Source: Arenicellales bacterium (lineage in GTDB: Bacteria > Pseudomonadota > Gammaproteobacteria > Arenicellales > JAJDZL01). Taken from it: a stretch of 64,000 nt of DNA. The DNA lies in the NCBI GenBank assembly GCA_965200765.1, contig OZ241380.1, positions 1,170,417 to 1,234,416 on the forward strand. The letters run 5' to 3'. A program made the position numbers and the translations under genes. The notes beneath the pieces were generated by a model, which was not told the DNA's origin, did no database searches, and worked only from the letters and a program-made list of their open reading frames with translations. Of the stretch, positions 5,240 to 28,464 are shown in pieces. Every line of letters begins with the position of its first letter. The first letter of the stretch is position 1.

Positions 5240-5316
<77 letters not shown>

Positions 5317-5458
5317 CACTTCATAAATTGATCACTCTGAAAGACACAGAAATTCTCTGTACTTCGAGACAAACAGGGCACCCTGCAACTTCAAAATTAC
5401 AGCACGTTCCATCAGCAATCAAGTTGGTCAGCCAGACAAATTTGTCAAAATTTGAGTT

Positions 5459-5636
5459 GAGGGACGAATGGGGGACGAATGGGGGACGAATGGGGGACGA
5501 ATGGGGGACGAATGGGGGACGAATGGGGGACGAATGGGGGACGAATGGGGGACGAATGGGGGACGAATGGGGGACGAATGGGGGACGAATGGGGGACGAA
5601 TGGGGGACGAATGGGGGACGAATGGGGGACGAATGG
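5459..5636. repeat. perfect tandem minisatellite, 16 copies of the 11-bp unit GGGGGACGAAT
   Basis: ACGAAT recurs exactly every 11 nt from 5464 to 5629 (16 occurrences), and the first unit is slightly degenerate. Because 11 is not a multiple of 3, all frames show the same 11-aa periodic pseudo-peptide (GDEWGTNGGRM) in the ORF track. Confidence 0.95.
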
Positions 5637-5693
5637 AAATTGCAAAGCCTTTCAAGTGATTTCGCTGGATAAGTCACTTATGTATTGAACCAG

Positions 5694-7283: not shown

Positions 7284-7649
7284 TCAAATCAGCGTATCAA
7301 TTTTACGCAACACGCCTATCAACTTGGAAAGCTGTTGTGCCGAAATCTTGCCCTTGTCAGTGCCTATCAAGCAGACCGCTACGAACCTTTTGGCAGTAGC
7401 AAAGCAAGCAGGCTCGAAAACCGTCACGTCTGTCGACGAAACTTGCCAACCGCACTGGGCGCACTCATGCAAATGACGGTGCTTCGGTTGCCAGGACTTG
7501 TCGTGACCGCACTTCGGGTTGACCAATCTGTTTTTCCAGAGATGCTGGTTCAATTCTTCCGGACAAGCCGGCCGAGTTGAATACCTCTGTGTCCATTCAA
7601 AATTTCCAGAATTCTGCTGTATTTGAAATTTGCTCGCCAGCATGCTCAA
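7284..7649 (-). pseudogene. IS1595-family (ISXO2-like) transposase, N-terminal fragment (zinc-ribbon/HTH part only)
   Basis: ...NPKCGHDKSWQPKHRHLHECAQCGWQVSSTDVTVFE...KGKISAQQLSKLIGV follows the IS1595 N-terminal layout: C-x2-C ... C-x2-C zinc ribbon, then 'S.T.GT.F', then 'KKGISA.QL.R.LGV'. No DDE domain follows. The fragment is cut at 7171/7172 by the IS right end. Confidence 0.6.
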
Positions 7650-7750
7650 TCACGTGGTTACGATGTATTACAATGCAAACCTTTGCAATAGTGTGCCCAA
7701 TGCAATCCAATTTGGTGCTGCAAATGGAATTTGTCAATCCTGGAGGAACG

Positions 7751-7777
7751 TTCATAGTGAATTGATTTCACTATGAA
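7751..7777. promoter_or_regulatory. perfect palindrome (11-bp arms, 5-nt spacer) followed by T5: operator or weak intrinsic terminator/insulator
   Basis: TTCATAGTGAA-ttgat-TTCACTATGAA, then ATTTTTG. An identical copy sits at 22537-22563. Confidence 0.6.
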
Positions 7778-7789
7778 TTTTTGATTGAT

Positions 7790-7800
7790 GGGGGGGGGGG
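7790..7800 (+). repeat. homopolymeric G11 tract, promoter-proximal (candidate transcriptional phase-variation tract)
   Basis: 11 consecutive G located between TTGATT (7781-7786) and tgaaattcattcaat, about 45 nt upstream of a conserved TATAAT. The same G11 tract is found at 22574-22584. Confidence 0.8.
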
Positions 7801-7851: not shown

Positions 7852-8013
7852 AATTGATGATTCATTGGTCATTCGAAGCTGGGGTAGTTTCAGTAGTTTG
7901 TTGTAAAAATATTTTCTGGTACAAGTTGATGAAATTGATGTTGAAGCTGATTGGAACAATCGCTTGGCTTTGCAGTCGAAAGTGTTCTGTTGCTTTGGCG
8001 AAAAAATTAGCGA

Positions 8014-8024
8014 GGGGGGGGGGG
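8014..8024 (+). repeat. homopolymeric G11 tract inside the 5' leader/signal-peptide region of giant gene 1 (candidate translational phase-variation tract)
   Basis: 11 G. TAG 8008-8010 closes the giant frame just 5' of the tract. The ATG-initiated leader frame (7857 or 7929) crosses the tract in another frame and stops at 8129. G10 or G13 would fuse leader and giant ORF. Confidence 0.85.
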
Positions 8025-8118
8025 TGCATTCACTTGTATATCCGAAAGCCCAGTTCGCCGGCTCTCACTTGCCAAGCACATTACCTGCTGGCTACTGGTA
8101 GCGACAATATCAATATGC

Positions 8119-14100: not shown

Positions 14101-17100
14101 ACGAGCAGGACGATTACAGTATCGGTGACGGGCGATACGGCGATCGAGGGGAATGAGACGATCGTGATTTCGCTGAGCAATGCGACGACCGGCATTGCGA
14201 CGGCCAGCGGCACCGGCACGATCAGAGACGACGACCTGGTATTCTCGATCGACTCGCCGAGCGTGACAGAAGGCGACAGCGGCTCGGCGAGCCTGGTGTT
14301 CACCGTTTCGCTGAGTACGGCGAGCGCCTCGCCGCACACGGTTGACTACGCCGACGCAGGCAGCGGGACGGCGAGTTCCGGGACCGACTACACGGCGGTC
14401 GCCGCCGGCACGCTGACGTTCGCGGCGAACGAGACCAGCAGGACAATAACGGTATCGGTGCGGGGCGATACGCTGAACGAAGGGAACGAGACGGTGGTGC
14501 TCACGCTGAGCAATGCGTCGGCGGGCACGGCGATTGCGACGGCCAGCGGCACCGGCACGATCAGAGACGACGATCTGGTATTTTCGATCGACTCGCCGAG
14601 CGTGACCGAAGGCGACAGCGGGTCGGTGAACCTGACGTTCACCGTGACGCTGAATGCGTCGGCCTCGTCGACGCAGACAGTGGACTACGCCGATGCGGGC
14701 ACCGGCACGGCGACGTCGGGGACCGACTACACGGCGGTCGCCGGCGGCACGCTGACGTTTGCGGCGGGCACCACGAGCCAGACGATTGCAGTGTCGGTGA
14801 CGGGCGACACGACTCAGGAGGGGAACGAGACGGTGGTGCTCGAGCTGAGCAATGCGACGACCGGCATTTCGACGGCCAGCGGCACCGGCACGATCACGGA
14901 CAACGATCTGGTATTTTCGATCGACTCGCCGAGCGCGGCGGAAGGCGACAGCGGCTCTGCGAACCTGACATTCACAGTGACGCTGAGTGCGTCGGCGTCG
15001 TCGACGCACACAGTGGACTACGCCCAAACAGGCGGCACGGCGACTTCGGGGACCGACTACACGGCGGTCGCCGGCGGCACGCTGACGTTTGCAGCAGGGG
15101 TCACGACCCAGACGATTGCGGTGTCGGTGACAGGCGATACGGCGGACGAAGGAAACGAGACGGTGGTAATCATGCTGAGCAATGCATCGACCGGCATTTC
15201 GACCGCGAGCGGCACCGGGACGATCACGGACGACGACCCGAAATTCTCGATCAACTCGCCGAGCGTGGCGGAAGGCGACAGCAGCACGGCGAACCTGGAG
15301 TTCACGGTGACACTGAGCGGGACGAGGTCGAGCTCGTCGCCGCTGTCGGTTGACTACGCCAGTTCGGACGGAACGGCGACAGCAGGCACTGACTACACTG
15401 CTGTTTCCGGCACGCTGACGTTTGCGTCGGGTGTGACAAGCCGGACAGTTGCGGTGTCGGTGACGGGCGACACGACGGACGAGTCGAACGAGACGGTGGT
15501 GCTCACGCTGAGCAATGCATCGGCGGGCACGGGGATTTCGACGGCGACCGGCACCGGCACGATCCGGGACGACGACCCGAATTTCTCGATCAACTCGCCG
15601 AGCGTTGTGGAAGGCGACAGCGGGCCGGTGAATCTGGTATTCACCGTTACGCTGAGCGCGTCTGCTTCGTCGCCGTACACGGTCGACTATGCCGATGCGG
15701 GGACCGGGACAGCGACTTCGGGAACCGACTACACAGCAGTCACCGGCAGCACGCTAACGTTTGCGGCGGGGGAAACGAGCAAGACAATTACAGTGTCGGT
15801 GACAGGCGACACAGTGGACGAGTCGAACGAGACGGTGGCGATCACTTTGAGCAATGCGTCGTCGGGCACGGCGATTTCGACGGCGACCGGCACCGGCACG
15901 ATCAGGGACGACGATCCGAAATTCTCGATCAACTCGCCGAGCGTGACGGAAGGCGACAGCAGCTCGGTCAACCTGGTGTTCACGGTGACACTGAGCGCTT
16001 CAAGCACGTCGCAGCTGACGGTCGACTACGCGCAGACGGGCGGCACGGCGACCTCGGGGACCGACTACGCGGCGGTCACCGCCGGCACGCTGACGTTTAC
16101 GCCGGGGACCACAACCCGGACGATTGCGGTGTCGGTGACGGGCGACACCGCGGACGAGTCGAACGAGACGGTGGTGCTCACGCTGAGCAATGCGACGGCG
16201 GGCGCGGGCATTTCGACGGCGACCGGCACCGGGACGATCATGGACGACGATCCGAAATTTTCGATCGGCAATGCGAGCGTGGCGGAGGGCGACAGCGGTT
16301 CGGCGAACCTGGTGTTCACCGTTACGCTGAGTGCTTCAAGCACATCGCAGCTGACGGTCGACTACGCGCAGACGGGCGGCACTGCGACGTCGGGGACCGA
16401 CTACACGGCGGTCGCCGCCGGCACGCTGACGTTTCCGGCGAACAGCACGACCCGGACGATTACGGTGCTGGCGACGGGCGACATGCTGGACGAGGCGAAT
16501 GAGACGGTGGTGCTCACGCTGAGCAATGCGACGTCGGGCGCGGGTATTTCTACAGCGACCGGCACCGGCACGATCCGGGACGACGACCCGAAATTCTCGA
16601 TCAACTCGCCGACGGCGACGGAAGCCGACAGCAATTCGGTGAACCTGGTGTTCACGGTGACACTGAGCGCATCAAGCTCGTCGCAGTTGACGGTGGACTA
16701 CGCTCAGACGGGCGGCACGGCGACGTCGGGAACCGACTACGCAGCGGTCGCCGCCGGCACGCTGACGTTTGCGGCCGGGACGACGAGCCGGACGATCACG
16801 GTATCGGTGACGGGCGACACGGCGAACGAGGTGAACGAGACGGTGATCATCACGCTGAGCAATGCGACGTCCGGCGCGGGCATTGGGACGGCGGTCGGCA
16901 CGGGCACGATCACGGACAACGACACGCCCGGCTTTTCAATCAATTCGCCGAGCGTGGCGGAAGGCGACAGCAGCACGACGAACCTGGTGTTCACAGTGAC
17001 GCTGAGTCCGGCGCCGGCGACTGCGGCGACGGTGAACTGGGCCGAAGGTACCGGGGGCACGGCGACGTCGGGGACCGACTACACCGCGATTGCGGGCGGC

Positions 17101-20100
17101 ACGCTGACGTTTTCGGCGGGGACCGCGACCCGGACGATTACGGTATCAGTGACAGGGGACACGACGCACGAAGCGGACGAGACGGTGGTGATCACGCTGA
17201 GCAATGCGTCGACGGGCACGAACATTTCGACGGCGAGCGGCACCGGCACCATCACCAACGACGATTCAGGCCTTTCGATCGACTCGCCGAGCGTGACGGA
17301 GGGCGACAGCGGGTCGGCGAACCTGGTGTTCACGGTGACGCTGAGTCCGGCGTCGTCGTCGCAGGTGACGGTGAACTACGCCCGCACGGGCGGCACCGCG
17401 ACGTCGGGCACCGACTTCACGGCGCTGGCCGCCAGCACCACGCTGACATTTGCGGCGAACGAAACAAGCAAGACAATCGCGGTGTCGGTGACGGGCGATA
17501 CGATCAACGAGGCGAACGAGACAGTGATTGTCACGCTGAGCAGCGCCTCGGGCGCGGACATCGTGACGGCCAGCGGCACCGGCACGATCACGGACGACGA
17601 CACGCCCAGCTTTTCGATCAACTCGCCGAGCGTGGTGGAGGGCGACAGCAGCACGGCGAACCTGGAGTTCACAGTGACGCTGAGTCCGGCCAGCTACCAG
17701 GCTACGACAGTGGACTATGCGACTGCAACTGCAGGCACAGCGACGGCGGGGACCGACTTCACGGCGATCTCGGCGACCACATTGACGTTTGCGGCGGGGG
17801 ATACGAGCAAGACGTTCATGGTGTCGGTGACGGGCGACACGACTGACGAGGGTGCGGGCGAGACGGTGGTGGCTGCACTGAGCGATGCGACCGGCAATGC
17901 AGAGATCGGGACATCGAGCGGCACCGGCACGATTACGGACGACGACCCGAAATTTTCGATCGGCAATGCGAGCGCGACGGAGGGCGACAGCGGTTCGGTG
18001 AACATGACATTCACAGTGACGCTGAATTCTGCGGGCAATTCGCAGTACACGGTCGACTACGCCAGTACGGACGGCACGGCGACTGCGGGAACCGACTACA
18101 CGGCGGTCTCGGGAACGCTGACGTTTGCGGCGGGGACCACGAGCCGTACATTGACAGTATCGGTGACGGGGGACGCGGCGAACGAGGCGAACGAGACATT
18201 GACGGTCACGCTGAGCAATCCGTCGGTAGGCACGGCGATTGCGACGGCGACCGGCACCGGCACCATCACGGACAACGATACGCCGGGCTTTTCGATCGAC
18301 TCGCCGAGCGTGGCGGAAGGCGACAGCAGCACGACGAGCCTGACGTTCACGGTGACGCTGAGTCCGGCGCCGGCAACCCAGGCGACGGTGAACTGGGCCG
18401 AAGGTACCGGGGGCACGGCGACGTCGGGTACCGACTACACAGCGATTACAGGCGGCACGCTGACGTTTTCGGCGGGGACCGCGACCCAGACGATTACGGT
18501 ATCAGTGACAGGGGACACGTCGCACGAAGCGGACGAGACGGTGGTGCTCACGCTGAGCAATGCGTCGAGCGGCACGAACATCACGACGGCGACCGGCACC
18601 GGCACCATCACCAATGACGATCCGGGCCTTTCGATCGACTCGCCGACGGTGACGGAGGGCGACAGCGGATCGGTGGACCTGGTGTTCACAGTAACGATGA
18701 GCCCGGCATCGTCGTCTCAGGTGACGGTGAACTACGCCCGCAGCGGCGGCACGGCGACGTCGGGAACCGACTTCACGGCGCTGGCCGCCAGCAACACGCT
18801 GACGTTTGCGGCGAACGAGACGAGCAAGACGATCACGGTGTCGGTGACGGGCGACACGGTGAACGAGCCAGACGAGACGGTGATCGTCACGCTGAGCAGC
18901 GCATCGGGTGCGGACATCGTGACAGCCAGCGGCACGGGTACGATCACGGACAACGACACGCCGAACTTCTCAATTGATTCGCCGAGCGTGGCGGAAGGCG
19001 ACAGCAGCACGACGAACCTGACGTTCACGGTGACGCTGAGTCCGGCGAGCTACCAGCCGGTGACAGTGGACTACGCGCAGACCGGCGGCACGGCGACCTC
19101 GGGGACCGACTATACGGCGGTCGCGGCCGGCATGCTGTCGTTTGCAGCAGGTGCTACGAGCCAGACGATCACGGTATCGGTGACGGGCGACACGATGTAC
19201 GAAGCGAGCGAGACGGTGGTGCTCACGCTGAGCAATGCGTCGTCGGGCACGAACATAGCGGCGGCGACTGGCACCGGCACCATCGCCAACGACGACCAGG
19301 GACTGCTGATTGATTCGCCGAGCGTGGTCGAGGGCGACAGCGGTACGGTGAACCTGGCGTTTACGGTGACGCTGGAGCCGGCAGCTGCGACGCAGGTGAC
19401 GGTGAACTATGCGGATGCAGGCGGCGGCACGGCGACCTCGGGGACCGACTACGCGGCAGTCGGCGGCACGCTGACGTTTTCCGCCGGGGAGACGAGCAAG
19501 ACGATTGCGGTATCGGTGACCGGCGACACGGCGGACGAGCCGGACGAGACGGTGGTGATTGCGCTGAGCAATGCGTCGGGCGCGAGCATCGTAACGGCGC
19601 GCGGCACCGGGACGATCGTGGACAACGATGTGCCCGGCTTTTCGATTGATTCGACAAGCGCGGCGGAAGGCGACGACGAGGCGAGCAGCCTGACGTTCAC
19701 GGTGACGCTGAGCCCGGCAAGCTACAGGCAGGTGTCGGTGAACTACGCCGATGCCGGCACCGGCACGGCGACGTCGGGGAGCGACTATGCGGCTTTTGGC
19801 GGCACGCTGACATTCTCGGCAGGGGAGACCAGCAAGACGATTGCAGTGTCGGTGACGGACGATGCGCTGGACGAGCCGGACGAGACGGTGGTGGTTGTGC
19901 TGAGCCATGCGTCGTCGGGCACGAGCATTGCGACGGCGAGCGGCACGGGTACGATCACAGACAACGACATCCCCGGCTTTTCGATCGACTCGCCGAGCGT
20001 TGTGGAAGGCGACAGCGGTTCGACCGTTCTGACGTTCACGGTTTCGCTGAATCCGGCGAGCCATCAGCCGGCCACGGTGCACTACGCCGATGCGGGTACT

Positions 20101-22125
20101 GGCACGGCGACTTCGGGGACCGACTACGAGACCCTTGCCGGCGGCACGCTGAGGTTTGCCGCCGGGGAGACCAGCAAGACGATTGCGGTGTCGGTGACCG
20201 GCGACGCGGAGTTCGAGCCGGACGAGACGGTGGTGATCGCATTGAGCAATGCGACGTCGGACGCGAGCATTGCGACGGCCAGCGGCACCGGAACCATCGC
20301 GAACGATGACGACACGCCGGTCTTTTCGATCGACTCGCCGAGCGTGGAGGAGGGCGACGCCGATTCGGTCAATCTCACCTTCACGGTGACGCTGACTCCG
20401 GCGAGCTTCGAGCAGGCGACAGTGAACTATGCGGATACCGGCACCGGCACCGCGGAAGCGGGCGAAGACTACAGGTCGATCGCCGGCGGCACGCTGACGT
20501 TCGCCGCCGGGGAGACCAGCAAGACGATTGATGTGTCCGTGCTCGGCGATGTTCTGTCGGAGCAGGACGAGACGATCGTGCTGATGCTCAGCGACCCGAA
20601 CCCGTCGTACACCATAGAGGAGGCCCGCGGCACAGGGACTATCACTGACAATGATGCGTCGGTGCTGGACGAGGTGGACACGGAGATTGTGGCGGAAGTG
20701 GCGCGCGAGGTTACCACGAGCGTGGTGACGGCGGTCGGCAACCGGATTGCTTCAGTGGTTGGCGGCGCGGCCATTGCACCGCCGATCGGCTTGCCGCCGG
20801 TCAGCGTGCCGCCCACTGGCGGATTTGCGGACGGCGGCCTGCTTTCGATACTGGAGCGTTCCGCGCGGCACAGCCGCGAGCGGGAGCGCGGCCTGGAGCG
20901 TTCGGAGATGTCGCTGTATCGTTCGCTGGACGGCGCCAGCTTCGTCTATACGCCGAGCGTTGCCGCTCTGGGTGCGAATGGTTCGGCCGACGCATCCGGC
21001 GGGACGCTTGCCGGCACCCCGACGGTGTGGGGTTCGGTTGACTATCGAAAATTGTCCGGCGGCGGTGCAGATGCGCTGCAGTGGGACGGCGAGCTGGCCT
21101 CTGTCAATATTGGCACCGACACGATGGTCGATGCCGGCGTTCTGGTGGGCCTGGCGGCCGGAGTGTCGAAAGGAAGCTTCGGCTATCAGGGCAGCGCCGG
21201 CGGCACCAGCGGCGTGGTGAAGGTGCGCGTGAAGTCATTGAATCCTTACATTGGCTGGTCGGTGTCGGATTCGGCGAGCCTGTGGGCGGCCGTTGGCTAC
21301 GGCAAGGGCAAGGTCAACTACAACGACGGTGCCACCGGAGAAGCCGCCAGCAAGATGTCGATCGCCAGTGCGGCTTTGGGCGGACGCTATCGTCTGCATT
21401 CGACTGATGGTTCATCGGACGGCCGTTTGATTCAGGTAGACCTGAAGGGAGAGGCCTGGGGTCTGCAGACCAAGGTTGACGGGGACGAGCGGCGTCCAAT
21501 GGGTTCAAAGTCCCGTGCGCACGGGGTGCGCGTTGCGGTTGAGAGGCTGCAAAACTGCGCGCTTGAATCCGGCGCTTCGCTGACGCTGTCTGGCGAAGCC
21601 GGCTTGCGCTGGGACGGCGGCGACGGCGACACTGGCACTGGCATCGAAATGGGCGGCACTGCGGACTACCACAACCCGGCAACCCGAATGAAGCTGGTGG
21701 CGACGGGCCGCGCCTTGCTGGACCATGAAAGCGAACGGAAGGAGTGGGGCGCCGGCGTGACAGCAGGGTACCGGCTGAATAGTCGAGAAACCGGACTGAC
21801 CTACCGATCTTCCCTGTCGCACGGGCAGACGGAAAGCGGAGTTGATTCTCTCTGGGACAGCCGCGTTGCCAGTCGTGCATCCGAAGATGCGGAGCCGACG
21901 ACGCGCCTGGACGCGGAGGTCGGCTATCGATTGTTTGGAGCGAGCGGTCTGCATACGCCGTACGTTGGATTCGGCGCGGAAGACAGCGGTACGCGGGACT
22001 ACCGCCTCGGCATGCGTTATGCAAGTGAATCCGAGCTGTCCTCGGGCCTGGAATTCGAGCGACGAGAAGCGAATGGCAAACAGCCTGACCACAGGGTCAT
22101 GCTGACCGGGCAGATTGACTGGTAG
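8119..22125 (+). CDS. giant Calx-beta repeat adhesin-like protein with autotransporter-type C-terminal beta-barrel (4668 aa as tracked; the homologous signal peptide begins upstream of the tracked ATG)
   Basis: A single 14,007-nt ORF. It has the end of a signal peptide (..LLVATISICMLPDANA|EG, partly 5' of 8119), a head of about 130 aa, 1 degenerate plus 35 canonical repeats of about 112 aa, a linker, and a barrel ending ..RVMLTGQIDW. Codon third positions are overwhelmingly G/C, unlike the flanking genes. All minus-strand ORFs inside it are antisense artefacts. Confidence 0.9.
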   Translation: MLPDANAEGRGFTSPSGISGTTIGEGQFDTGSVAAKFVVKDTAGFWSGWQNSYVRLLNAPSGLTIVNSRTYQNSTLGCNTGSPRECVEIDLGWSATADVSSDTTVTVQVVGNGFNAGRQFGAWFTVGTFTIKADVEELQVSTPTSSSTVTEAGSKSGFTVRLGKAPTAKVTVNVSSSDTSEGSVSPGELVFTSDDYNTTQSVTVTGVDDSIYDGNKTWNVVLNPSSTDTGYNALSNVNVGMTTTDDEAAPTFSIDSPSVTEGDSGSVNLTFTVTLSAASALQHKVNYADAGTGTATSGTDYTALAASSTLTFAAGETSKTITVQVTGDTAVEANETVVINLSNATGGAGISTASGTGTITDDDLKFSIDSPSVTEGDSGSANLVFTVTLNASVSTQHTVDFADAGTGTATSGTDYTTIPNGTLTFAANETSKTITVSVTGDTANEGNETVVISLSNATAGAGIGTASGTGTIIDNDLTFSINSPSVTEGDSGSVNLTFTVTLSASVSSPQTVDYADAGSGTATSGTDYTTIPNGTLTFAANETSKTIAVSVTGDTSNEGNETVVIELSNATTSISTARGTGTITDNDLVFSIDSPSVTEGDSSSVNLIFTVTLSASVSSTHTVVYADAGTGTATSGTDYTSISGGTLTFAANETSKTITVSVTGDTLDEGTGETVVISLSNATTGISTASGTGTITDNDPKFSINSPSVTEGDGSSVNLVFTVTLSASSTSQYTVDYADAGSGTATSGTDYTSVTGSTLTFAPGDTSKTITVSVTGDTIGEPSETVVIELSNATTGISTSSGTGTIRDNDLVFSIDSPSVTEGDSGSANLVFTVTLSVTSASQHTVDYADAGTGTAMSGTDYTSISGGTLTFAPGDTSKTVAVSVRGDTLNEGNETVVISLSNATTGISTSSGTGTIRDNDLVFSIDSPSVTEGDSNSVNLVFTVTLNASSTSPQTVDYADAGSGTATSGTDYASVTGSTLTFAANETSKTITVSVTGDTANEGNETVAITLSNASTGISTASGTGTIIDNDLTFSIDSPSVTEGDSSTVNLTFTVTLNASSTSPHTVDYADAGTGTATSGTDYTAVTANTLTFAPGVTTQTITVSVTGDTVDEGHETVAITLSNATTGISTASGTGTITDDDPKFSINSPTATEGDSSSVNLTFTVTLSASSTSPYTVDYADAGTGTATSGTDYTAVTASTLTFAAGETSKTITVSVTGDTADEGTGETVVISLSNASSGTAIATASGTGTITDNDPKFSINSPTATEGDSSSASLVFTVTLSAAGASPYTVDYAQTGGTATSGTDYAAVAADTLTFAAGTTSQTITVPVTGDTLDESNETVVLTLSNASSGTAISTATGTGTITDDDPKFSIDSPSVTEGDSGQANLIFTVTLSASSTSQLTVDYAQTGGTATSGTDYAAVTAGTLTFAASETTKTITVLATGDTADESNETVALTLSNASAGTGIATSTGTGTIRDDDPKFSINSPSVTEGDSGQASLTFTVTLSASSTSQLTVDYAQTGGTATSGTDYTAVAGSTLTFPANSTTQTITVLVTGDTADESNETVVLTLSNASAGTGIATSTGTGTIRDDDPKFSINSPSVTEGDSGQASLTFTVTLSASSTSQLTVDYAQTGGTATSGTDYAAVTADTLTFAPGTTTRTVAVSVTGDTLDESNETVVLTLSNATAGTGISTATGTGTITDDDPKFSIDSPSVTEGDSSPVNLVFTVTLSASSTTQLTVDYAQTGGTATSGTDYTAVAASTLTFAPGDTSQTITVSVTGDTTGEGNETVEITLSNASAGTGIATATGTGTIRDNDLAFSIDSPSVTEGDSNSASLVFTVTLSASSTSQHTVDYADAGSGTATSGTDYASIAGSTLTFAAGETSKTFTVSVTGDTLNEGNETIVISLSNATTGIATASGTGTIVDNDLVFSIDSPSVAEGDSSSVTMTFTVTLSASASSPHTVDYADAGSGTATSGTDYTAIAGGTLTFAAGVTSRTITVSVTGDTAIEGNETIVISLSNATTGIATASGTGTIRDDDLVFSIDSPSVTEGDSGSASLVFTVSLSTASASPHTVDYADAGSGTASSGTDYTAVAAGTLTFAANETSRTITVSVRGDTLNEGNETVVLTLSNASAGTAIATASGTGTIRDDDLVFSIDSPSVTEGDSGSVNLTFTVTLNASASSTQTVDYADAGTGTATSGTDYTAVAGGTLTFAAGTTSQTIAVSVTGDTTQEGNETVVLELSNATTGISTASGTGTITDNDLVFSIDSPSAAEGDSGSANLTFTVTLSASASSTHTVDYAQTGGTATSGTDYTAVAGGTLTFAAGVTTQTIAVSVTGDTADEGNETVVIMLSNASTGISTASGTGTITDDDPKFSINSPSVAEGDSSTANLEFTVTLSGTRSSSSPLSVDYASSDGTATAGTDYTAVSGTLTFASGVTSRTVAVSVTGDTTDESNETVVLTLSNASAGTGISTATGTGTIRDDDPNFSINSPSVVEGDSGPVNLVFTVTLSASASSPYTVDYADAGTGTATSGTDYTAVTGSTLTFAAGETSKTITVSVTGDTVDESNETVAITLSNASSGTAISTATGTGTIRDDDPKFSINSPSVTEGDSSSVNLVFTVTLSASSTSQLTVDYAQTGGTATSGTDYAAVTAGTLTFTPGTTTRTIAVSVTGDTADESNETVVLTLSNATAGAGISTATGTGTIMDDDPKFSIGNASVAEGDSGSANLVFTVTLSASSTSQLTVDYAQTGGTATSGTDYTAVAAGTLTFPANSTTRTITVLATGDMLDEANETVVLTLSNATSGAGISTATGTGTIRDDDPKFSINSPTATEADSNSVNLVFTVTLSASSSSQLTVDYAQTGGTATSGTDYAAVAAGTLTFAAGTTSRTITVSVTGDTANEVNETVIITLSNATSGAGIGTAVGTGTITDNDTPGFSINSPSVAEGDSSTTNLVFTVTLSPAPATAATVNWAEGTGGTATSGTDYTAIAGGTLTFSAGTATRTITVSVTGDTTHEADETVVITLSNASTGTNISTASGTGTITNDDSGLSIDSPSVTEGDSGSANLVFTVTLSPASSSQVTVNYARTGGTATSGTDFTALAASTTLTFAANETSKTIAVSVTGDTINEANETVIVTLSSASGADIVTASGTGTITDDDTPSFSINSPSVVEGDSSTANLEFTVTLSPASYQATTVDYATATAGTATAGTDFTAISATTLTFAAGDTSKTFMVSVTGDTTDEGAGETVVAALSDATGNAEIGTSSGTGTITDDDPKFSIGNASATEGDSGSVNMTFTVTLNSAGNSQYTVDYASTDGTATAGTDYTAVSGTLTFAAGTTSRTLTVSVTGDAANEANETLTVTLSNPSVGTAIATATGTGTITDNDTPGFSIDSPSVAEGDSSTTSLTFTVTLSPAPATQATVNWAEGTGGTATSGTDYTAITGGTLTFSAGTATQTITVSVTGDTSHEADETVVLTLSNASSGTNITTATGTGTITNDDPGLSIDSPTVTEGDSGSVDLVFTVTMSPASSSQVTVNYARSGGTATSGTDFTALAASNTLTFAANETSKTITVSVTGDTVNEPDETVIVTLSSASGADIVTASGTGTITDNDTPNFSIDSPSVAEGDSSTTNLTFTVTLSPASYQPVTVDYAQTGGTATSGTDYTAVAAGMLSFAAGATSQTITVSVTGDTMYEASETVVLTLSNASSGTNIAAATGTGTIANDDQGLLIDSPSVVEGDSGTVNLAFTVTLEPAAATQVTVNYADAGGGTATSGTDYAAVGGTLTFSAGETSKTIAVSVTGDTADEPDETVVIALSNASGASIVTARGTGTIVDNDVPGFSIDSTSAAEGDDEASSLTFTVTLSPASYRQVSVNYADAGTGTATSGSDYAAFGGTLTFSAGETSKTIAVSVTDDALDEPDETVVVVLSHASSGTSIATASGTGTITDNDIPGFSIDSPSVVEGDSGSTVLTFTVSLNPASHQPATVHYADAGTGTATSGTDYETLAGGTLRFAAGETSKTIAVSVTGDAEFEPDETVVIALSNATSDASIATASGTGTIANDDDTPVFSIDSPSVEEGDADSVNLTFTVTLTPASFEQATVNYADTGTGTAEAGEDYRSIAGGTLTFAAGETSKTIDVSVLGDVLSEQDETIVLMLSDPNPSYTIEEARGTGTITDNDASVLDEVDTEIVAEVAREVTTSVVTAVGNRIASVVGGAAIAPPIGLPPVSVPPTGGFADGGLLSILERSARHSRERERGLERSEMSLYRSLDGASFVYTPSVAALGANGSADASGGTLAGTPTVWGSVDYRKLSGGGADALQWDGELASVNIGTDTMVDAGVLVGLAAGVSKGSFGYQGSAGGTSGVVKVRVKSLNPYIGWSVSDSASLWAAVGYGKGKVNYNDGATGEAASKMSIASAALGGRYRLHSTDGSSDGRLIQVDLKGEAWGLQTKVDGDERRPMGSKSRAHGVRVAVERLQNCALESGASLTLSGEAGLRWDGGDGDTGTGIEMGGTADYHNPATRMKLVATGRALLDHESERKEWGAGVTAGYRLNSRETGLTYRSSLSHGQTESGVDSLWDSRVASRASEDAEPTTRLDAEVGYRLFGASGLHTPYVGFGAEDSGTRDYRLGMRYASESELSSGLEFERREANGKQPDHRVMLTGQIDW
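8872..20655 (+). repeat. array of 35 tandem Calx-beta-type coding repeats (333-345 bp each)
   Basis: Each unit follows FSI[DN]SPSVTEGDSGS.NL.FTVTLS......TVDYA..G.GTATSGTDY.....TLTF..GETSKTI.VSVTGDT..E.NETVV..LSNA......A.GTGTI.D[ND]D. I counted this directly from the translation (35 occurrences of the [FL][SLT]I..[PAT]S..E[GA]D start). It matches the Calx-beta consensus (V.EG.G...V.R....TV.Y.T.DGTA.AG.DY....L.F..GE..K.I.V.I.DD..E..E.F.V.L). Confidence 0.9.
21022..22122 (+). other. autotransporter-type outer-membrane beta-barrel domain of giant protein 1
   Basis: TVWGSVDYRKLSGGG...WDGELASVNIGTDTMVDAGVLVGLAAGVSKGSFGY...LNPYIGWSVSDSASLWAAVGYGKGKVNY...AALGGRYRL... resembles the translocator pattern of classical autotransporters ('W.r.yg......g...y....g.q.G.d.....l.lG...gy'). 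The last strand alternates hydrophobic residues (V-x-L-x-G-x-I-x-W) and ends in an aromatic residue. Confidence 0.7.
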
Positions 22126-22428
22126 GCAGGAAAGAATCAACGCAGAGATATCCAGCGCTTTTGCCGGCAATTTCCGTATACCGCGCACAGCTGTGCAACT
22201 CGCATGTCCAGCACCTGTAGCAAAACTCTATGATCGCACTGGGAGCATGCGTGCAAACGACGGTGCTTCAGTTGCCAGAACTTGTCGTGACCGCACTTGG
22301 GGCGGATGAATCCGTATTTCCAGCGACTCCGGTTCAACTCTTCCAGACAAGCCGGCCGAGTTGAATACCTCTGTGTCCATTCAAAAATTGCCAGAATTCT
22401 GCTGGATTTGAAATTTGCTCGCCAGCAT
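22126..22428 (-). pseudogene. IS1595-family transposase N-terminal fragment, copy 2 (frameshifted)
   Basis: Reverse ATG at 22428 gives MLASKFQIQQNSGNF*. After a frameshift it continues as ..RPKCGHDKFWQLKHRRLHACSQC.. (track ORF 22137..22337). It is homologous to 7284..7649. Confidence 0.6.
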
Positions 22429-22536
22429 TCTCAATCAGGTTGTCAACGTTGCATCACAGTACAAGCCTTTACAATAGGTTGAGGCATGCAGTCCAATTTG
22501 GTGTAGCAAATGGAATATGTCAATCCTGGACGAACG

Positions 22537-22563
22537 TTCATAGTGAATTGATTTCACTATGAA
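22537..22563. promoter_or_regulatory. perfect palindrome, copy 2 (TTCATAGTGAA-ttgat-TTCACTATGAA, then T5)
   Basis: Identical to 7751-7777. Confidence 0.6.
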
Positions 22564-22573
22564 TTTTTGATTA

Positions 22574-22584
22574 GGGGGGGGGGG
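22574..22584 (+). repeat. homopolymeric G11 tract, promoter-proximal, copy 2
   Basis: 11 G. The sequence between TTGATT and the tract is 2 nt shorter here than in copy 1 ('a' versus 'gat'). Confidence 0.8.
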
Positions 22585-22734
22585 TGAAATTCATTCAATC
22601 AAGAATCAATTCTGGTTGCTTGAATGGTTTATAATAATCAATGATTCATTGGTCATTTGAAGCTGGGGTAGTTTCAGTATTTTGTTGCAAAAATATTTTC
22701 AGGTACAAGTTGATGAAATTGATGTTGAAGCTGA

Positions 22735-25700
22735 TTGAACCAATTGCTTGGCTTTGCAGTCGAAAGAGATTTGTTGCATTGGCACATAAAAATAGCGAGG
22801 GGGGGGGGGGGCAAGAATACTTGTATATTCGAAAGCTCTGTTCGCCAGTTTGCGCTTGCCCGGTACATTGCCAGTTCGCTGCTGGTATTGACAATATCAG
22901 TATGCATGCTGTCTGATGCTGATGCGGTTAATCTTGGCTTTAAAAGTCCGTATAGTGGAAATAGTATTTTTGCAGACCAATTAGCCGGCGGCGCGACGTT
23001 TGAGATTCGCGATAATTCACACGGGTTTGACACCCCGAATCTTAATAATTATCGGCTCCAAAATGCTCCCTCTGGCCTCTCAATTTCTAGTGTGACTGTC
23101 GACGCTAGTGACGATGCTCACTTGACTATGAGCTGGACTGGCACCAGCAGAACTGTCGCGATGGATACATTAGTTGCCATTCAAGTCCACAGGAATGGGT
23201 TTATTAGTGGATCAAGCTTAGCCGCTGGCTGGCATGACAGAGGCTCCTTCACAATCAACCCGACGCCCAAGGGGCTTGTCACAAGCACCCCTACCAACAG
23301 CAGCACGGTCACGGAGGCAGGCACCCAGTCGACGTTCACAGTGAGGCTAAGGGCGGCACCGTCGGCCAATGTGACAGTCGCTGTTTCCAGCGGCGACACA
23401 ACCGAGGGCAGTGTGTCGCCGAACACGCTAACCTTCACGACCCAGAACTACGGCACTGCGCAGACGGTGACAGTAACGGGTGCCGATGATAATATACAGG
23501 ACGGCAGCGTGAGCTGGAATGTGGTGCTCAATCCGGCCTCAAGTGGGGACAGCACGTACAACGGCTTGTCCAACGTGAATGTGGCAATGACCACCAGCGA
23601 CGACGAAGGTTCGCCCGCCTTTTCGATCGGTAGTGCGAGCGTGACGGAGGGCGACAGCGGCTCTGCGAACTTGACATTCACGGTTTCGATGAGTCCGGAG
23701 AGCACGTCGCAGTATACGGTGAACTACGCACAGACGGGCGGCACGGCGACTTCGGGGACCGACTACACGGCGGTTACCAGTAGCACGCTTACGTTTGCGG
23801 CGGGGGTGACGACCCAGACAATTACGGTGTCGGTGACGGGGGACGCGGTGGCCGAGGGGAACGAAACGGTGGTGCTCACGCTGAGCAGTGCGTCGACGGG
23901 TTCGACCATCTCGACGGCGACCGGCACTGGCACGATTGTGGACAACGACCTGACATTTTCGATCAATTCGCCGAGCGTGGTCGAGGGCGACAGCAGCTCG
24001 GTGAACCTGGTGTTCACGGTGACACTGAGTGCGTCGAGCACGTCGCAGCATACGGTCGACTACGCGCAGACGGGCGGCACAGCGACTTCGGGGACCGACT
24101 ACACGGCGGTTACTGCCAATACGCTGACGTTTACTGCGGGAACCACGACCCAGACGATCACGGTGTCGGTGACGGGAGACACGGTGGATGAAGCGGACGA
24201 GACGGTGGTGTTCACTTTGAGCAATGCGACGACCGGCATTTCGACAGGAAGCAGCATCGTTACGACGGCGAGCGGCACCGGCACGATAAGGGACGACGAT
24301 CCGAAATTTTCGATCGACTCGCCTACGGTGACGGAAGGCAACAGCAGCTCTGTCAATCTGGTATTCACGGTGACGCTGAGCGCTTCGAGCACGTCGCAGC
24401 TCACGGTCGACTACGCCAGTTCGGACGGCACGGCGACTGCGGGCGCCGACTACACGGCGGTCTCCGGGACACTGACGTTTGCGGCGGGGACCACGAGCCG
24501 TACATTTACAGTTTCGGTGACGGGGGACACGGCGAACGAGGCGAACGAGACATTGACGGTCACGCTGAGCAATCCGTCGGCAGGCACGGGGATTATGACG
24601 GCGACTGGCACCGGCACCATTACGGACAACGACACGCCCGGCTTTTCGATCAACTCGCCGAGCGTGGCGGAAGGCGACAGCAGCACAACGAGCCTGACGT
24701 TCACAGTTTCGCTGAATCCGGCGCCAGCAGCTGCGGCGACGGTGAACTGGGCCGTTACGGGTGGTACGGCGACGTCGGGGACTGACTTCACAGCCACTTC
24801 GGGCGGCATGCTGTCGTTTGCTGCGACTGAAACCAGCAAGACATTTACAGTGACGGTGACCGGCGACACGACGCATGAGGCGGACGAGACTGTAGTGGTC
24901 ACACTGAGCAGTGCGTCAACGGGCACGAACATTGCGACGGCGACCGGCACGGGCACGATCACCAACGATGATCCGGGTCTTTCGATCGACTCGCCGAGCG
25001 TGACGGAAGGCGACAGTGACTCGGTGAACCTAGTGTTCACGGTGACGATGAGTCCGTCATCATCGTCTCAGGTGACGGTGAACTACGCCCGTTCCGGCGG
25101 CACGGCGACCTCGGGCACCGATTTCACGGCGCTTGCCGCCAGCACCACGCTGACGTTTGCGGCGAACGAGACGAGCAAGACGATCACAGTGTCGGTGACG
25201 GGCGATACGGCGAACGAGGCGGACGAGACGGTGATCATCACGCTGAGCAGCGCTTCGGGTGCAGACATCGTGACAGCAAGCGGCACGGGCACGATCACGG
25301 ACAACGACACGCCGAACTTTACGATCGACTCGCCGAGCGTGGTCGAGGGCGACAGCGGTTCGGTGAATCTGGAGTTCACAGTGACACTGAGTCCGGCCAG
25401 CTACCAGCCGGTGACGGTGGACTACGCCCAGACCGGCGGCACGGCGACGTCGGGGACTGATTACACGGCGCTTGCCGCCGGCATGCTGTCATTTGCGGCG
25501 GGCGACACGAGCAAGACGATCACGGTATCGGTGACGGGCGACACGGTGTACGAGGCGAGCGAGACGGTGGTACTGACGCTGAGCAACGCAACGGCGGGCA
25601 CGAATATTGCGACGGCGAGCGGCACCGGCACGATCACCAACGATGATCCGGGCCTTTCGATAGACTCGCCGAGTGTGGTGGAGGGCGACAGCGGCGCGGT

Positions 25701-28464
25701 GAACCTGGCGTTCACGGTGACGCTGGATCCAGCGTCGTCGTCGCAGGTGACGGTGAATTATGCGGATACAGGCGGCGGGACGGCGACCTCGGGGACCGAC
25801 TACGCGGCGATCGGCGGAGGCACCCTGACGTTTTCCGCCGGAGAGACGAGAAAGACAATAGCGGTATCGGTGCGAGGGGACACGGCGGACGAGGCGGACG
25901 AAACGGTGGTGATTGCGCTGAGCAATGCGTCGGGTGCGAGCCTCGTGACGGCGCGCGGCACCGGCACGATCACGGACAACGAAGTGCCTGGCTTTTCGAT
26001 CGACTCGCCGAGCGCGGCGGAAGGCGACAGCGAGTCGACTAGTCTGACGTTCACGGTGACACTGAGTCCGGCGAGCTACAAGCAAGTGTCGGTGAACTAC
26101 GCCGATGCTGGAACCGGCACAGCGACGTCGGGGAGCGACTATGCGGCGATTGGCGGCACGCTGACATTTGCCGCCGGGGAGACCAGCAAGACGATTGCGG
26201 TGTCGGTGACGGATGATGCGCTGGACGAGCCGGACGAGACGGTGGTGATCACACTGAGCGGTGCATCGTCGGGCACGAGCATTGCGGCGGCCAGCGGCAC
26301 CGGCACGATCACGGACAACGACATACCTGGCTTTTCGATCGACTCGCCGAGCGTGGCGGAAGGCGACAGTGGATCGACCAGTCTGACGTTCACGGTTTCG
26401 CTGAGTCCGGCGAGCCATCAGCCGACAACGGTGAACTACGCCGATGCGGGCAGCGGGACGGCAACTTCGGGGACCGACTACGAGACCCTTGCCGGCGGTA
26501 CGTTGCGATTTGCCGCGGGAGAGTCCAGCAAGACGATTGCGGTGTCGGTGACCGGCGACGCGGAGTTCGAACCGGACGAGACGGTGGTGATCGCACTGAG
26601 CAATGCGACGTCGGACGCGAGCATCTCGACGGCGAGCGGCACCGGAACCATTGCGAACGATGACGACACGCCGGTCTTTTCGATCGACTCGCCGAGCGTG
26701 GAGGAGGGCGACACTGATTTGGTCAATCTGACCTTCACGGTGACGCTGACTCCGGCGAGCTACGAGCAGGCGACGGTGAATTATGCAGATGCAGGTACCG
26801 GCACTGCGGAAGCGGGCGAAGACTACAGGTCGATCGCCGGCGGCACGCTGACGTTCGCCGCCGGGGAGACCAGCAAGACGATTGATATATCTGTGATCGG
26901 CGATGTTCTGTCGGAGCAGGACGAGACGGTGGTGCTGGTGCTCAGCAACCCGAACCCGTCGTACACCATAGAGGAGGCCCGCGGCACGGGCACCATCACG
27001 GACAATGATGCGTCGGTGCTGGACGAGGTGGACATGGAGATTGTTGCGGAAGTGGCGCGCGAGGTTACCACCAGCGTGGTGACGGCGGTCAGCAACCGGA
27101 TTGCTTCAGTAGTTGGCGGCGCGGCGATAGCACCGCCGGTCGGTTTGCCGCCGACTGGCGGATTTGCGGACGGCGGCCTGCTTTCGATTCTGGAGCATTC
27201 TGCGCGGCACAGCCGCGAGCGGGAGCGCGGCCTGGAGCGTTCGGAGATGTCGCTGTACCGTTCGCTGGACGGCGCCAGCTTCGTCTACACGCCGAGCGTT
27301 GCCGCTCTGGGTGCGAATAGTTCGGCCGATGCGAGCGGCGGTGGACTTTCCGGCGGTCCGACAGTTTGGGGTTCGGTTGACTATCGAAAATTGTCCGGCG
27401 GCGGTGCGGATGCATTGCAGTGGGACGGCGAACTGGCCTCTGTCAATATTGGCACCGACACGATGGTCGATGCCGGTGTTCTGGTTGGTCTCGCGGCCGG
27501 AATGTCGAAAGGAAGCTTCGGCTATCAGGGCAGCACCGGCGGCACCAGCGGCGTGGTGAAGGTGCGCGTGAAATCGCTGAATCCCTACATTGGCTGGTCG
27601 GTGTCGGAATCGGCGAGCCTGTGGGCGGCGGTCGGCTACGGCAAGGGCAAGGTCAACTACAACGACGGTGCCACCGGAGAAGCCACCAGCAAGATGTCGA
27701 TCGCCAGCGCGGCGCTGGGCGGACGCTATCGGTTGCATTCGAGTGATGGTTCCTCGTGCAACTGCTTGATTCAGGTGGATCTGAAGGGAGATGCCTGGGG
27801 TCTGCAGACCAAGGTTGAAGGTGACGAGCGGCGTCCGATGGGGTCGAAGTCCCGGGCTCACGGGGTGCGCGTTGCGATTGAGAGGCTTCAAAGCAGTGCG
27901 CTTGAATCCGGCGCTTCGCTGACGCTGTCAGGCGAAGCCGGCTTGCGCTGGGACGGCGGCGACGGCGATACTGGCACTGGCATCGAGATGGGCGGCACAG
28001 CGGAATATCGCAACCCGGCAACCCGAATGAAATTGGTGGCGACAGGTCGCGCCTTGCTGGACCATGAAAGCGACCGGAAGGAGTGGGGCGCCGGCGTGAC
28101 GGCAGGGTACCGGCTCGATAGTCGTGAGACCGGACTGACCTACAGATCTTCCCTGTCGCACGGGCAACCGGAAAGCGGGGTTGATTCTCTCTGGGACAGC
28201 CGCGTTGCCAGTCGTGCCTCCGAAGACGGGGAGCTGACGACGCGCCTGGACGCGGAGGTCGGCTATCGATTGTTTGGAGCGAGCGGTCTGCACACGCCGT
28301 ACGTTGGATTCGGAATGGAAGAAGGCAGCAAGCGGGACTATCGCATCGGCATGCGCTATGCCAGCGAATCAGAGCTGTCTTCGGGCCTGGAATTCGAGCG
28401 ACGGGAAGCAGACGGCAAGCAACCCGACCACAGAGTCATGCTGACCGGGCAAATAATTTGGTAG
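22735..28464 (+). CDS. Calx-beta repeat adhesin-like protein with autotransporter-type C-terminal beta-barrel (1909 aa as tracked; the start codon is uncertain)
   Basis: Paralogue of 8119..22125. It has the signal peptide RQFALARYIASSLLVLTISVCMLSDADA|VN, a divergent head (about 22927-23274), 1 degenerate plus 10 canonical Calx-beta units, and a linker and barrel that by eye match gene 1 at roughly nine residues in ten, ending ..RVMLTGQIIW. The tracked start is a TTG directly after a TGA. Confidence 0.9.
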   Translation: MNQLLGFAVERDLLHWHIKIARGGGGKNTCIFESSVRQFALARYIASSLLVLTISVCMLSDADAVNLGFKSPYSGNSIFADQLAGGATFEIRDNSHGFDTPNLNNYRLQNAPSGLSISSVTVDASDDAHLTMSWTGTSRTVAMDTLVAIQVHRNGFISGSSLAAGWHDRGSFTINPTPKGLVTSTPTNSSTVTEAGTQSTFTVRLRAAPSANVTVAVSSGDTTEGSVSPNTLTFTTQNYGTAQTVTVTGADDNIQDGSVSWNVVLNPASSGDSTYNGLSNVNVAMTTSDDEGSPAFSIGSASVTEGDSGSANLTFTVSMSPESTSQYTVNYAQTGGTATSGTDYTAVTSSTLTFAAGVTTQTITVSVTGDAVAEGNETVVLTLSSASTGSTISTATGTGTIVDNDLTFSINSPSVVEGDSSSVNLVFTVTLSASSTSQHTVDYAQTGGTATSGTDYTAVTANTLTFTAGTTTQTITVSVTGDTVDEADETVVFTLSNATTGISTGSSIVTTASGTGTIRDDDPKFSIDSPTVTEGNSSSVNLVFTVTLSASSTSQLTVDYASSDGTATAGADYTAVSGTLTFAAGTTSRTFTVSVTGDTANEANETLTVTLSNPSAGTGIMTATGTGTITDNDTPGFSINSPSVAEGDSSTTSLTFTVSLNPAPAAAATVNWAVTGGTATSGTDFTATSGGMLSFAATETSKTFTVTVTGDTTHEADETVVVTLSSASTGTNIATATGTGTITNDDPGLSIDSPSVTEGDSDSVNLVFTVTMSPSSSSQVTVNYARSGGTATSGTDFTALAASTTLTFAANETSKTITVSVTGDTANEADETVIITLSSASGADIVTASGTGTITDNDTPNFTIDSPSVVEGDSGSVNLEFTVTLSPASYQPVTVDYAQTGGTATSGTDYTALAAGMLSFAAGDTSKTITVSVTGDTVYEASETVVLTLSNATAGTNIATASGTGTITNDDPGLSIDSPSVVEGDSGAVNLAFTVTLDPASSSQVTVNYADTGGGTATSGTDYAAIGGGTLTFSAGETRKTIAVSVRGDTADEADETVVIALSNASGASLVTARGTGTITDNEVPGFSIDSPSAAEGDSESTSLTFTVTLSPASYKQVSVNYADAGTGTATSGSDYAAIGGTLTFAAGETSKTIAVSVTDDALDEPDETVVITLSGASSGTSIAAASGTGTITDNDIPGFSIDSPSVAEGDSGSTSLTFTVSLSPASHQPTTVNYADAGSGTATSGTDYETLAGGTLRFAAGESSKTIAVSVTGDAEFEPDETVVIALSNATSDASISTASGTGTIANDDDTPVFSIDSPSVEEGDTDLVNLTFTVTLTPASYEQATVNYADAGTGTAEAGEDYRSIAGGTLTFAAGETSKTIDISVIGDVLSEQDETVVLVLSNPNPSYTIEEARGTGTITDNDASVLDEVDMEIVAEVAREVTTSVVTAVSNRIASVVGGAAIAPPVGLPPTGGFADGGLLSILEHSARHSRERERGLERSEMSLYRSLDGASFVYTPSVAALGANSSADASGGGLSGGPTVWGSVDYRKLSGGGADALQWDGELASVNIGTDTMVDAGVLVGLAAGMSKGSFGYQGSTGGTSGVVKVRVKSLNPYIGWSVSESASLWAAVGYGKGKVNYNDGATGEATSKMSIASAALGGRYRLHSSDGSSCNCLIQVDLKGDAWGLQTKVEGDERRPMGSKSRAHGVRVAIERLQSSALESGASLTLSGEAGLRWDGGDGDTGTGIEMGGTAEYRNPATRMKLVATGRALLDHESDRKEWGAGVTAGYRLDSRETGLTYRSSLSHGQPESGVDSLWDSRVASRASEDGELTTRLDAEVGYRLFGASGLHTPYVGFGMEEGSKRDYRIGMRYASESELSSGLEFERREADGKQPDHRVMLTGQIIW
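22799..22811 (+). repeat. homopolymeric G13 tract inside the 5' leader of giant gene 2
   Basis: 13 G, encoding RGGGG in the giant frame. The ATG leader frame from 22641 crosses it as EGGGGQ and stops at 22916. G12 or G15 would fuse the two. Confidence 0.85.
23620..27009 (+). repeat. array of 10 tandem Calx-beta-type coding repeats
   Basis: Same unit as in gene 1. Units 3-10 are collinear, unit for unit, with units 28-35 of gene 1. The marker strings appear in the same order: ..YASSDGTATAG.., ..NWA..GG.., LSID..NYARSGG..TDF.., ..SYQPVTVDYAQTGG..GMLSF.., ..NYAD.GGG.., ..SY[RK]QVSVNY..SGSDY.., ..SHQP.TV.Y..DYETLAGGTLRF.., ..EQATVNY..AEAGEDYRS... Confidence 0.9.
27361..28461 (+). other. autotransporter-type outer-membrane beta-barrel domain of giant protein 2
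   Basis: Collinear with 21022..22122, with few substitutions. Confidence 0.7.

Follow-up and report, generated by a model that had tools for sequence, protein, structure and literature searches.

The question raised by the 64,000-nt stretch of the Arenicellales bacterium contig OZ241380.1 (the window, taken at its full length) is why two giant genes in it, here called gene 1 and gene 2, carry long uninterrupted poly-G tracts in their leader regions. The reading that we consider probable is that the leader tract is a simple-sequence-repeat translational phase-variation switch, i.e., a contingency locus of the slipped-strand type, with slippage as the putative cause of the length changes. The genes that bear the tracts are the largest in their neighbourhood, reaching 14 kb, and the tracts form part of a conserved two-tract cassette present on several paralogues. 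Four tracts were found:

7790..7800, + strand: upstream tract of gene 1, G11.
8014..8024, + strand: leader tract of gene 1, G11; in-frame (ON) registers G10, G13 and G16.
22574..22584, + strand: upstream (promoter-proximal) tract of gene 2, G11; at the same place in every complete cassette (G10 in the related locus L002, see below).
22799..22811, + strand: leader tract of gene 2, G13; ON registers G9, G12 and G15.

The window sequence confirmed the G13 run reported at 22799-22811 in a preliminary description of this DNA. That description counted two tracts, however, while the window holds four, the extra pair being 7790-7800 and 22574-22584; its four expression states are, therefore, too few, since it had overlooked the promoter-proximal pair. 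The distribution of G/C run lengths in the window was discontinuous, with a maximum of 6 (only two such runs) followed directly by 11, 11, 11 and 13, and all four runs exceeding 6 nt in the whole 64 kb were located inside the two leader regions, which are 91% identical between the two genes over ~540 nt of upstream sequence. Under an independent, identically distributed base model 0.04 runs of at least 11 nt would be expected in the window, and in 186 kb of related loci each of the 16 G/C runs of at least 8 nt was a cassette tract. The tracts are, thus, a real and nonrandom feature, well beyond chance.

The predicted effect of the leader tract on translation involves these elements:

7929..8013, + strand: leader open reading frame (ORF) of gene 1, MKLMLKLIGTIAWLCSRKCSVALAKKLAR.
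22713..22798, + strand: leader ORF of gene 2, with the conserved ATG and the N-terminal extension MKLMLKLIEPIAWLCSRKRFVALAHKNSE, up to the tract.
22812..22926, + strand: signal-peptide remainder of gene 2, with n-region KNTCIFESSVRQFALARY, h-region IASSLLVLTISVCML and c-region SDADA ending in A-x-A.

The gene 2 leader tract begins 86 nt past the conserved ATG and before the h-region of a Sec-type signal peptide, which follows the tract in the giant frame of both genes and was recognized, with its regions, by inspection of the translations: a basic n-region, an h-region and an A-x-A motif (SDADA followed by V in gene 2, PDANA followed by E in gene 1). In an in-silico series from G8 to G16 the ATG and giant frames of gene 2 were joined at G9, G12 and G15, those of gene 1 at G10, G13 and G16. 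The fusion to ..GGGGKNTCIFESSVRQFALARYIASSLLVLTISVCMLSDADA followed by VNLG, previously predicted for G12 and G15, was reproduced, with G9 as an additional solution, and the two paralogues indeed need different tract lengths (G10/G13 for gene 1, G12/G15 for gene 2), their alignment showing the proposed 1-nt indel in the A-rich sequence that precedes the tract. The giant ORF of gene 2 (22735..28464, 1909 codons) is limited at the 5' side by the TGA at 22732-22734 and has only TTG codons 5' of the tract, at 22735, 22744, 22771 and 22774, none of them preceded by a good Shine-Dalgarno sequence, all as described before; no ATG, GTG or TTG is present in this frame between the tract and the h-region. 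In gene 1 the giant frame is interrupted by a TAG at 8008-8010 directly 5' of the tract and offers no other in-frame start.

Related loci were searched with a 22-mer of the leader DNA in a species-representative genome collection and in metagenome contigs. The genome collection contained one true relative (L002, on a 3.15-Mb chromosome of a metagenome-assembled genome, MAG, labelled Arenicellales bacterium, OZ241916.1) and one chance match (L001), and the metagenome contigs gave chance matches only, in AT-rich genomes such as Fusobacterium. Homologues of the barrel and of the N-terminal part led to four more loci in the ENA sample ERZ25070167: L012, L018, L020 and the second leader of L025; the contigs for P0002, P0004, P0005, P0006, P0011, P0060 and P0072 had no further leader, as they either start within the gene or have an unrelated 5' end. 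Besides the two window genes, the cassette precedes at least four distinct giant genes, with leader tracts of 10, 11, 11 and 12.

The comparison of all copies showed that the ATG at 22713 (7929 in gene 1) was present in 7/7, and that its frame, alone of the three, ran without a stop from there to the tract in every copy. The ATG-to-tract distance of 82–87 nt varies modulo 3 between the copies, so that the ON lengths differ (10/13, 12/15, 11/14 or 9/12) and the flanks do not keep the frame, which is restored via the tract only; this is typical of phase-variable genes. Depending on its length, the tract sets the frame either for the full protein or for an early stop in gene 1, gene 2 and L012, while L002 was found in frame, its G10 joining the ATG to an open stretch of over 2,511 codons. 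A stop adjoins the tract at its 5' side in the giant frame of gene 1, L012 and L025, and no ATG, GTG or TTG precedes the h-region there, which makes the ATG leader the sole source of a signal peptide in these copies. As judged from the translated sequences, a role is supported in which the tract would link the frame of the conserved ATG, upstream, with a signal peptide lacking a conserved start of its own, its length deciding whether an exportable product is made.

Two other starts were considered and rejected. The leader ORF had been described as beginning at ATG 22641; a + strand ORF 22641..22916 does exist and ends at 22916 as stated, but this ATG is absent from L002, L012, L018 and L020 and abuts the TATAAT box listed below. 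Termination-reinitiation at the ATG within 'CML' would give a product without signal peptide.

The 5' half of the cassette includes three further elements:

7750..7778, + strand: hairpin of gene 1, the aligned copy of the gene 2 hairpin.
22536..22564, + strand: hairpin of gene 2, AT-rich, with 12-bp arms and a 5-nt loop, followed by a T-run; a terminator-like match.
22630..22635, + strand: candidate -10 box TATAAT of gene 2, inside ATGG(T/C)TTATAAT, invariant in six loci.

All complete copies have a common order of parts, i.e., hairpin, G(10-11), TATAAT, ~75 nt, ATG, 82–87 nt, G(10-13) and signal peptide. The cassette motif can be written as TTCACTATGAATTTT-N5-8-G>=9 ... TGGCTTTGCAGTCGAA-N30-45-G>=9 (each G run of at least 9). 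The upstream tract follows directly 3' of the hairpin and T-run in both window genes, its length across the complete cassettes is either 10 or 11 only, and in all of these cassettes it ends 45 nt 5' of the invariant TATAAT. Conservation begins ~50–75 nt 5' of the upstream tract irrespective of what lies before it, which is a remnant of an IS1595 Zn-ribbon (window, L002, L012), a phosphoglucomutase fragment (L018) or a tRNA (L020), and the parts that follow downstream, signal peptide and tip domain, may differ as well, the signal peptide of L018 being unrelated. With both the upstream context and the downstream parts variable, it is the cassette itself that forms the conserved unit, and the IS1595 remnant, absent upstream of the L018 and L020 cassettes, does not belong to the functional unit.

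The hairpin was kept in six loci with only one compensatory pair, leaving an RNA role unproven, and by its sequence it could be either an insulating terminator or a palindromic site for a regulator. A scan with the sigma-70 consensus upstream of gene 2 found neither a full promoter nor a recognisable -35 element. The only sigma-70-like consensus match in the region (TTGCCA-16-GACAAT, 22868-22895) is located within the signal-peptide coding sequence and is probably fortuitous. With less support than for the leader switch, we infer that the upstream tract tunes transcription through the spacing or phasing between the hairpin/operator and the core promoter. A riboswitch or another structured leader was dropped from consideration, as shuffled sequences folded just as well as the leader RNA (z = 0.55), and Rfam gave nothing credible for 22100-23000. 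A G-quadruplex role was rejected, because an uninterrupted G11 is unable to form a canonical three-tetrad G4.

Tract length was further compared between strains of the window locus, which is represented in ERZ25070167 by two strain contigs with 27x and 14x coverage, 97.7–99.5% identical to the window. The gene 1 side of the window was closest to the 27x strain (99.5%) and the gene 2 side to the 14x strain (98.4%), which makes the window either a third strain or a consensus drawn from more than one strain. Over the ~580 nt that surround the gene 2 leader, L023 differed from the window in nothing but the tract, called G11 instead of G13, and in L022, with near-identical flanks, the tract was also G11, while the gene 1 region of L024 was identical to that of the window, both G11 tracts included. 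Relative to the ON register, L002 was in frame, gene 1, L012 and L020 were at +1, L018 at -1, and gene 2 at +1 in the window and at -1 in L022 and L023. The earlier claim that both genes are exactly one G too long is, hence, unreliable, because gene 2 would need one more G to be ON in two strain contigs and the calls may be technically biased. The heterogeneity expected of a switch was observed insofar as the same locus differs between assemblies, although a technical origin of this difference is possible.

The names of the contigs (ctgN_cov x_l) resemble metaMDBG output and the assemblies appear to be long-read ones. In such assemblies homopolymers constitute the main residual error, and what the polishing step corrects is, according to the metaMDBG authors, mostly errors of this kind (PMC11392814). 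Since 13/14 tracts in these contigs were called exactly G11, whatever the locus, several contigs carry additional frame breaks in giant genes, and homopolymers are subject to polishing, the origin of the length difference is ambiguous, and ON/OFF calls at 10 G or more from consensus assemblies are unreliable. Two such breaks, single-base insertions in an otherwise orthologous gene, were located in L012, both at 27x coverage: an extra G in the signal-peptide n-region at ~5135-5150 and a change of GG to GGG at ~9945, at the junction of the Calx-beta repeats and the barrel. These insertions could reflect either pseudogenisation or polishing errors in repeats.

Such observations, the break at ~9945 among them, would be expected if the tracts were miscalled, the true ones being in frame and the genes ON, or, in a strong form of this explanation, the tracts being stable as well, and one G fewer everywhere would indeed turn most copies ON. 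However, no uniform correction turns all of them ON: L002 would go OFF, L018 needs one G more, and gene 2 needs +1 in L022 and L023 yet -1 in the window. The giant ORFs of the window (4668 and 1909 codons) are intact apart from the tracts, which indicates a good consensus for shorter runs, and runs of 10–13 G are intrinsically unstable and yet are kept at the cassettes, no other run of the window exceeding 6. We regard miscalling as unlikely to account for the locus; moreover, it would alter the inferred state of the genes and not the nature of the element.

The phase-variation switch itself has several observations weighing against it. L002 is the only one among the distinct loci in the ON register, and the difference between G11 and G13 could be a consensus artefact. 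The third-position bias in the leader peptide is slight (variable sites 5/6/8), pointing to weak constraint on this peptide. No -35 element accompanies the candidate -10 box, the role of the upstream tract is putative, and this tract varies little in length (10 vs 11). Finally, tract-independent starts are possible in three copies, namely the TTG codons of gene 2 at G13, GTG 4001 in L018 and ATG 1182 in L020.

The latter starts are what would be found if the tract belonged to an upstream ORF or a 5' leader, the true start being downstream or in the giant frame and the tract length modulating translation instead of switching it: at G13 the giant frame of gene 2 is open to all four TTG codons (22735-22774), and GTG 4001 and ATG 1182 are each followed by a canonical signal peptide. 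On the other hand, gene 1, L012 and the L025 copy would then be left without a signal peptide, the TTG codons, poorly provided with Shine-Dalgarno sequences, are unusable in gene 1 and L012, the TTG frame of gene 2 is closed at the G11 of L022 and L023, and the fusion in L002 is in frame, so that we consider this explanation quite improbable.

Recoding is another alternative, in which the out-of-frame tract is the working state and the frame is restored either by a fraction of the ribosomes (+1/-1 slippage of tRNA-Gly on GGG GGG) or, in a fraction of the transcripts, by stuttering of RNA polymerase on the G run, fixing a low and constant expression of a costly giant protein. A G run allows perfect re-pairing of tRNA-Gly in any frame, in line with the slippery-site principle, and four loci (gene 1, L012, L020 and gene 2 of the window) stand one G past ON. 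This +1 excess is not significant, though (P about 0.1 for 4/6 falling in a single named frame), and the copies do not count as independent; states on either side of ON, +1 and -1, were seen as well as an in-frame copy (L002), and the folding and Rfam results given above provide no conserved stimulatory structure. Recoding appears, accordingly, very improbable. Little credence is also given to a composite version, in which out-of-frame tracts would not be plainly OFF: a portable dual poly-G module would hold giant adhesins at a low and tunable level by transcriptional or ribosomal slippage (recoding), added to heritable length changes, and recombination between cassettes (the L025 scar described at the end) would change the giant gene under its control. 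If true, a marine lineage that is either free-living or animal-associated, and not one of the classical pathogens, would possess a contingency system. None of the three rival explanations (miscalling, tract-independent starts and recoding) accounts for all copies; each may hold for individual ones.

In the phase-variation switch that we favor, translation of gene 2 would start at ATG 22713 and proceed through the extension of ~29 codons and then through the tract, read as a Gly run. Only with G9, G12 or G15 would reading extend through the whole signal peptide (n-, h- and c-regions), the Calx-beta passenger and the outer membrane (OM) barrel; at other lengths the ribosome would stop after about 65–70 codons, and no exportable protein would be produced. 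Slipped-strand mispairing at replication would shift the tract by +/-1, resulting in a mixture of ON and OFF cells, and gene 1, with its different ON register, would switch independently. The upstream tract, ~45 nt 5' of the TATAAT, would add the putative transcriptional tuning. Speculatively, gene 2 might have three levels: ON from the ATG at G12, weakly ON from a TTG at G13, and OFF at G11.

The products placed under this control have the following parts:

8025..22125, + strand: gene 1 signal-peptide remainder and Calx-beta protein of 4.6 kaa (thousand amino acids), with the same type of C-terminal barrel as in gene 2.
22927..28464, + strand: mature protein of gene 2, with divergent tip, conserved fn3-like domain, 10 Calx-beta repeats, helical linker and C-terminal OM beta-barrel.
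about 27004-28461, + strand: C-terminal OM beta-barrel of gene 2 (AlphaFold model, see below).

The gene 2 product of 1909 aa matched Pfam Calx-beta at E=3.9e-140, and the repeats numbered 10 in this protein and 35 in that of gene 1. The last ~490 residues of both window genes had no Pfam match even at E<=10, and autotransporter hidden Markov models (HMMs) run directly on the window proteins found no match either. Sixteen homologues of this part were recovered from the protein collection, and 5 of the 18 sequences obtained by adding the two window C-termini matched PF03797 (best E=2.4e-6). The AlphaFold (AF2) model built on the alignment of these 18 (pLDDT 71.5) consisted of N-terminal helices followed by a barrel with ~18 strand segments according to DSSP, whose best Foldseek match in the PDB was the beta-domain of BrkA, with a modest TM of 0.33/0.57 and generic OM barrels close behind; PDB sequence searches with the barrel, either as a single sequence or as a profile, retrieved a Calx-beta fragment only. 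The model and the relatives, taken together, suggest a barrel distantly related to those of autotransporters, and the protein is best called autotransporter-like, not proven type Va. Surface display and an adhesin function of the giant proteins are putative.

The most divergent part of these proteins was the tip domain (~119 aa in gene 2, ~120–133 aa overall; 22927-23283 in gene 2 and 8140-8538 in gene 1), with 34–61% aa identity in comparisons that included L002 and L012, against 65–85% in the domain after it and 72–93% in the barrel. Such sequence divergence is consistent with diversifying selection at the distal end. A protein search with the fused leader and tip domain of gene 2 returned no match, owing to the divergence of the tip. 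The similarity to ESPR (PF13018) pointed out in the preliminary description holds for the architecture, a bipartite leader of ~70 aa in which a charged and a hydrophobic part occur twice in turn, on a protein resembling type V, but not for the sequence, as the PF13018 HMM matched none of the three fused leaders (gene 1, gene 2, L002) at E<=10, and the extension here is broken by the tract-encoded Gly run.

Homopolymer contingency loci are textbook elements of host-restricted pathogens, such as Neisseria, Haemophilus, Campylobacter, Helicobacter, Bordetella and Moraxella. In Moraxella catarrhalis uspA1 and hag(mid) and in Neisseria pilC, poly-G is located in the 5' untranslated region or in the signal-peptide coding region of surface adhesins, whose protein families differ from the giant Calx-beta proteins. 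The product predicted here, with its A-x-A signal peptide, Calx-beta repeats, barrel and diverging tip, would be of the exported surface type that is the usual cargo of such switches. For NalP and MspA of Neisseria meningitidis, homopolymeric coding tracts are reported to turn the expression of these autotransporters ON and OFF by frameshift (PMC3723659), and both systems share a mononucleotide tract near the 5' end of the coding sequence for an exported protein of autotransporter type. They differ in that the passenger here is a giant Calx-beta array and not a protease, the barrel reaches PF03797 via relatives only, the tract is placed ahead of the h-region, in an N-terminal extension that is conserved, another tract is present 5' of the promoter, and the host is an uncultured marine member of the Arenicellales and not a human-adapted pathogen. 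An especially close logic is found in Helicobacter pylori sabA, where a T-tract in the promoter acts as a rheostat and CT repeats in the 5' coding region switch translation (PMC2715451, PMC4081817), i.e., two repeat tracts, one promoter-proximal and one 5' coding, are also combined on a single adhesin gene. In contrast to sabA, both tracts here are poly-G, the upstream one is located ~45 nt 5' of the -10 and not beside the -35, with a putative effect, and the cassette is reused on several paralogous giant genes. A literature search produced no paper linking Arenicellales with phase variation.

The switch logic being known already, what is new is where it occurs and how it is packaged: in an uncultured lineage of marine Gammaproteobacteria, with giant Calx-beta proteins as passengers, and in the form of a two-tract cassette that is reusable. 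If the switching is true, stochastic surface variation is in use well beyond clinical settings, and the giant Calx-beta proteins are likely to experience fluctuating selection, exerted for instance by hosts, grazers or phages. For annotators, it would also explain why giant genes look 'start-less' or truncated in long-read MAGs.

The surroundings of the giant genes contained several traces of mobile elements, two of them in the window being remnants of insertion sequences that matched PF12760 (E=3.5e-7 and 3.1e-5):

7284-7649, - strand: second IS1595-type remnant, frameshifted, upstream of and divergent to gene 1; PF12760.
22137..22380, - strand: remnant of the N-terminus of an IS1595-type transposase, frameshifted, divergent to gene 2; PF12760.

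An IS4-like transposase ORF with a weak NCBIfam match was present between nuoN and gene 1 (5783-7108, + strand); in the strain contigs the same region contained a DDE_3 transposase in L024 and no mobile element in L025. In L018 (ctg393888) another cassette-driven giant gene, at 5278-6570, follows a giant gene in tandem and is split by an IS256-type (Transposase_mut) insertion. The segment 13560-14460 of L025 (ctg393572, the 14x strain) is orthologous to the region upstream of gene 1 of the window, and in it the leader of a complete cassette is joined, after TGGCTTTGC, to the final codons of a giant gene (..GQMNW, stop); the second leader of this contig (ATG 14223, G11 at 14308-14318) has neither the hairpin nor the upstream tract. 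By its sequence arrangement this segment looks like a recombination scar, which suggests that giant genes are deleted or shuffled between strains by way of the cassettes.

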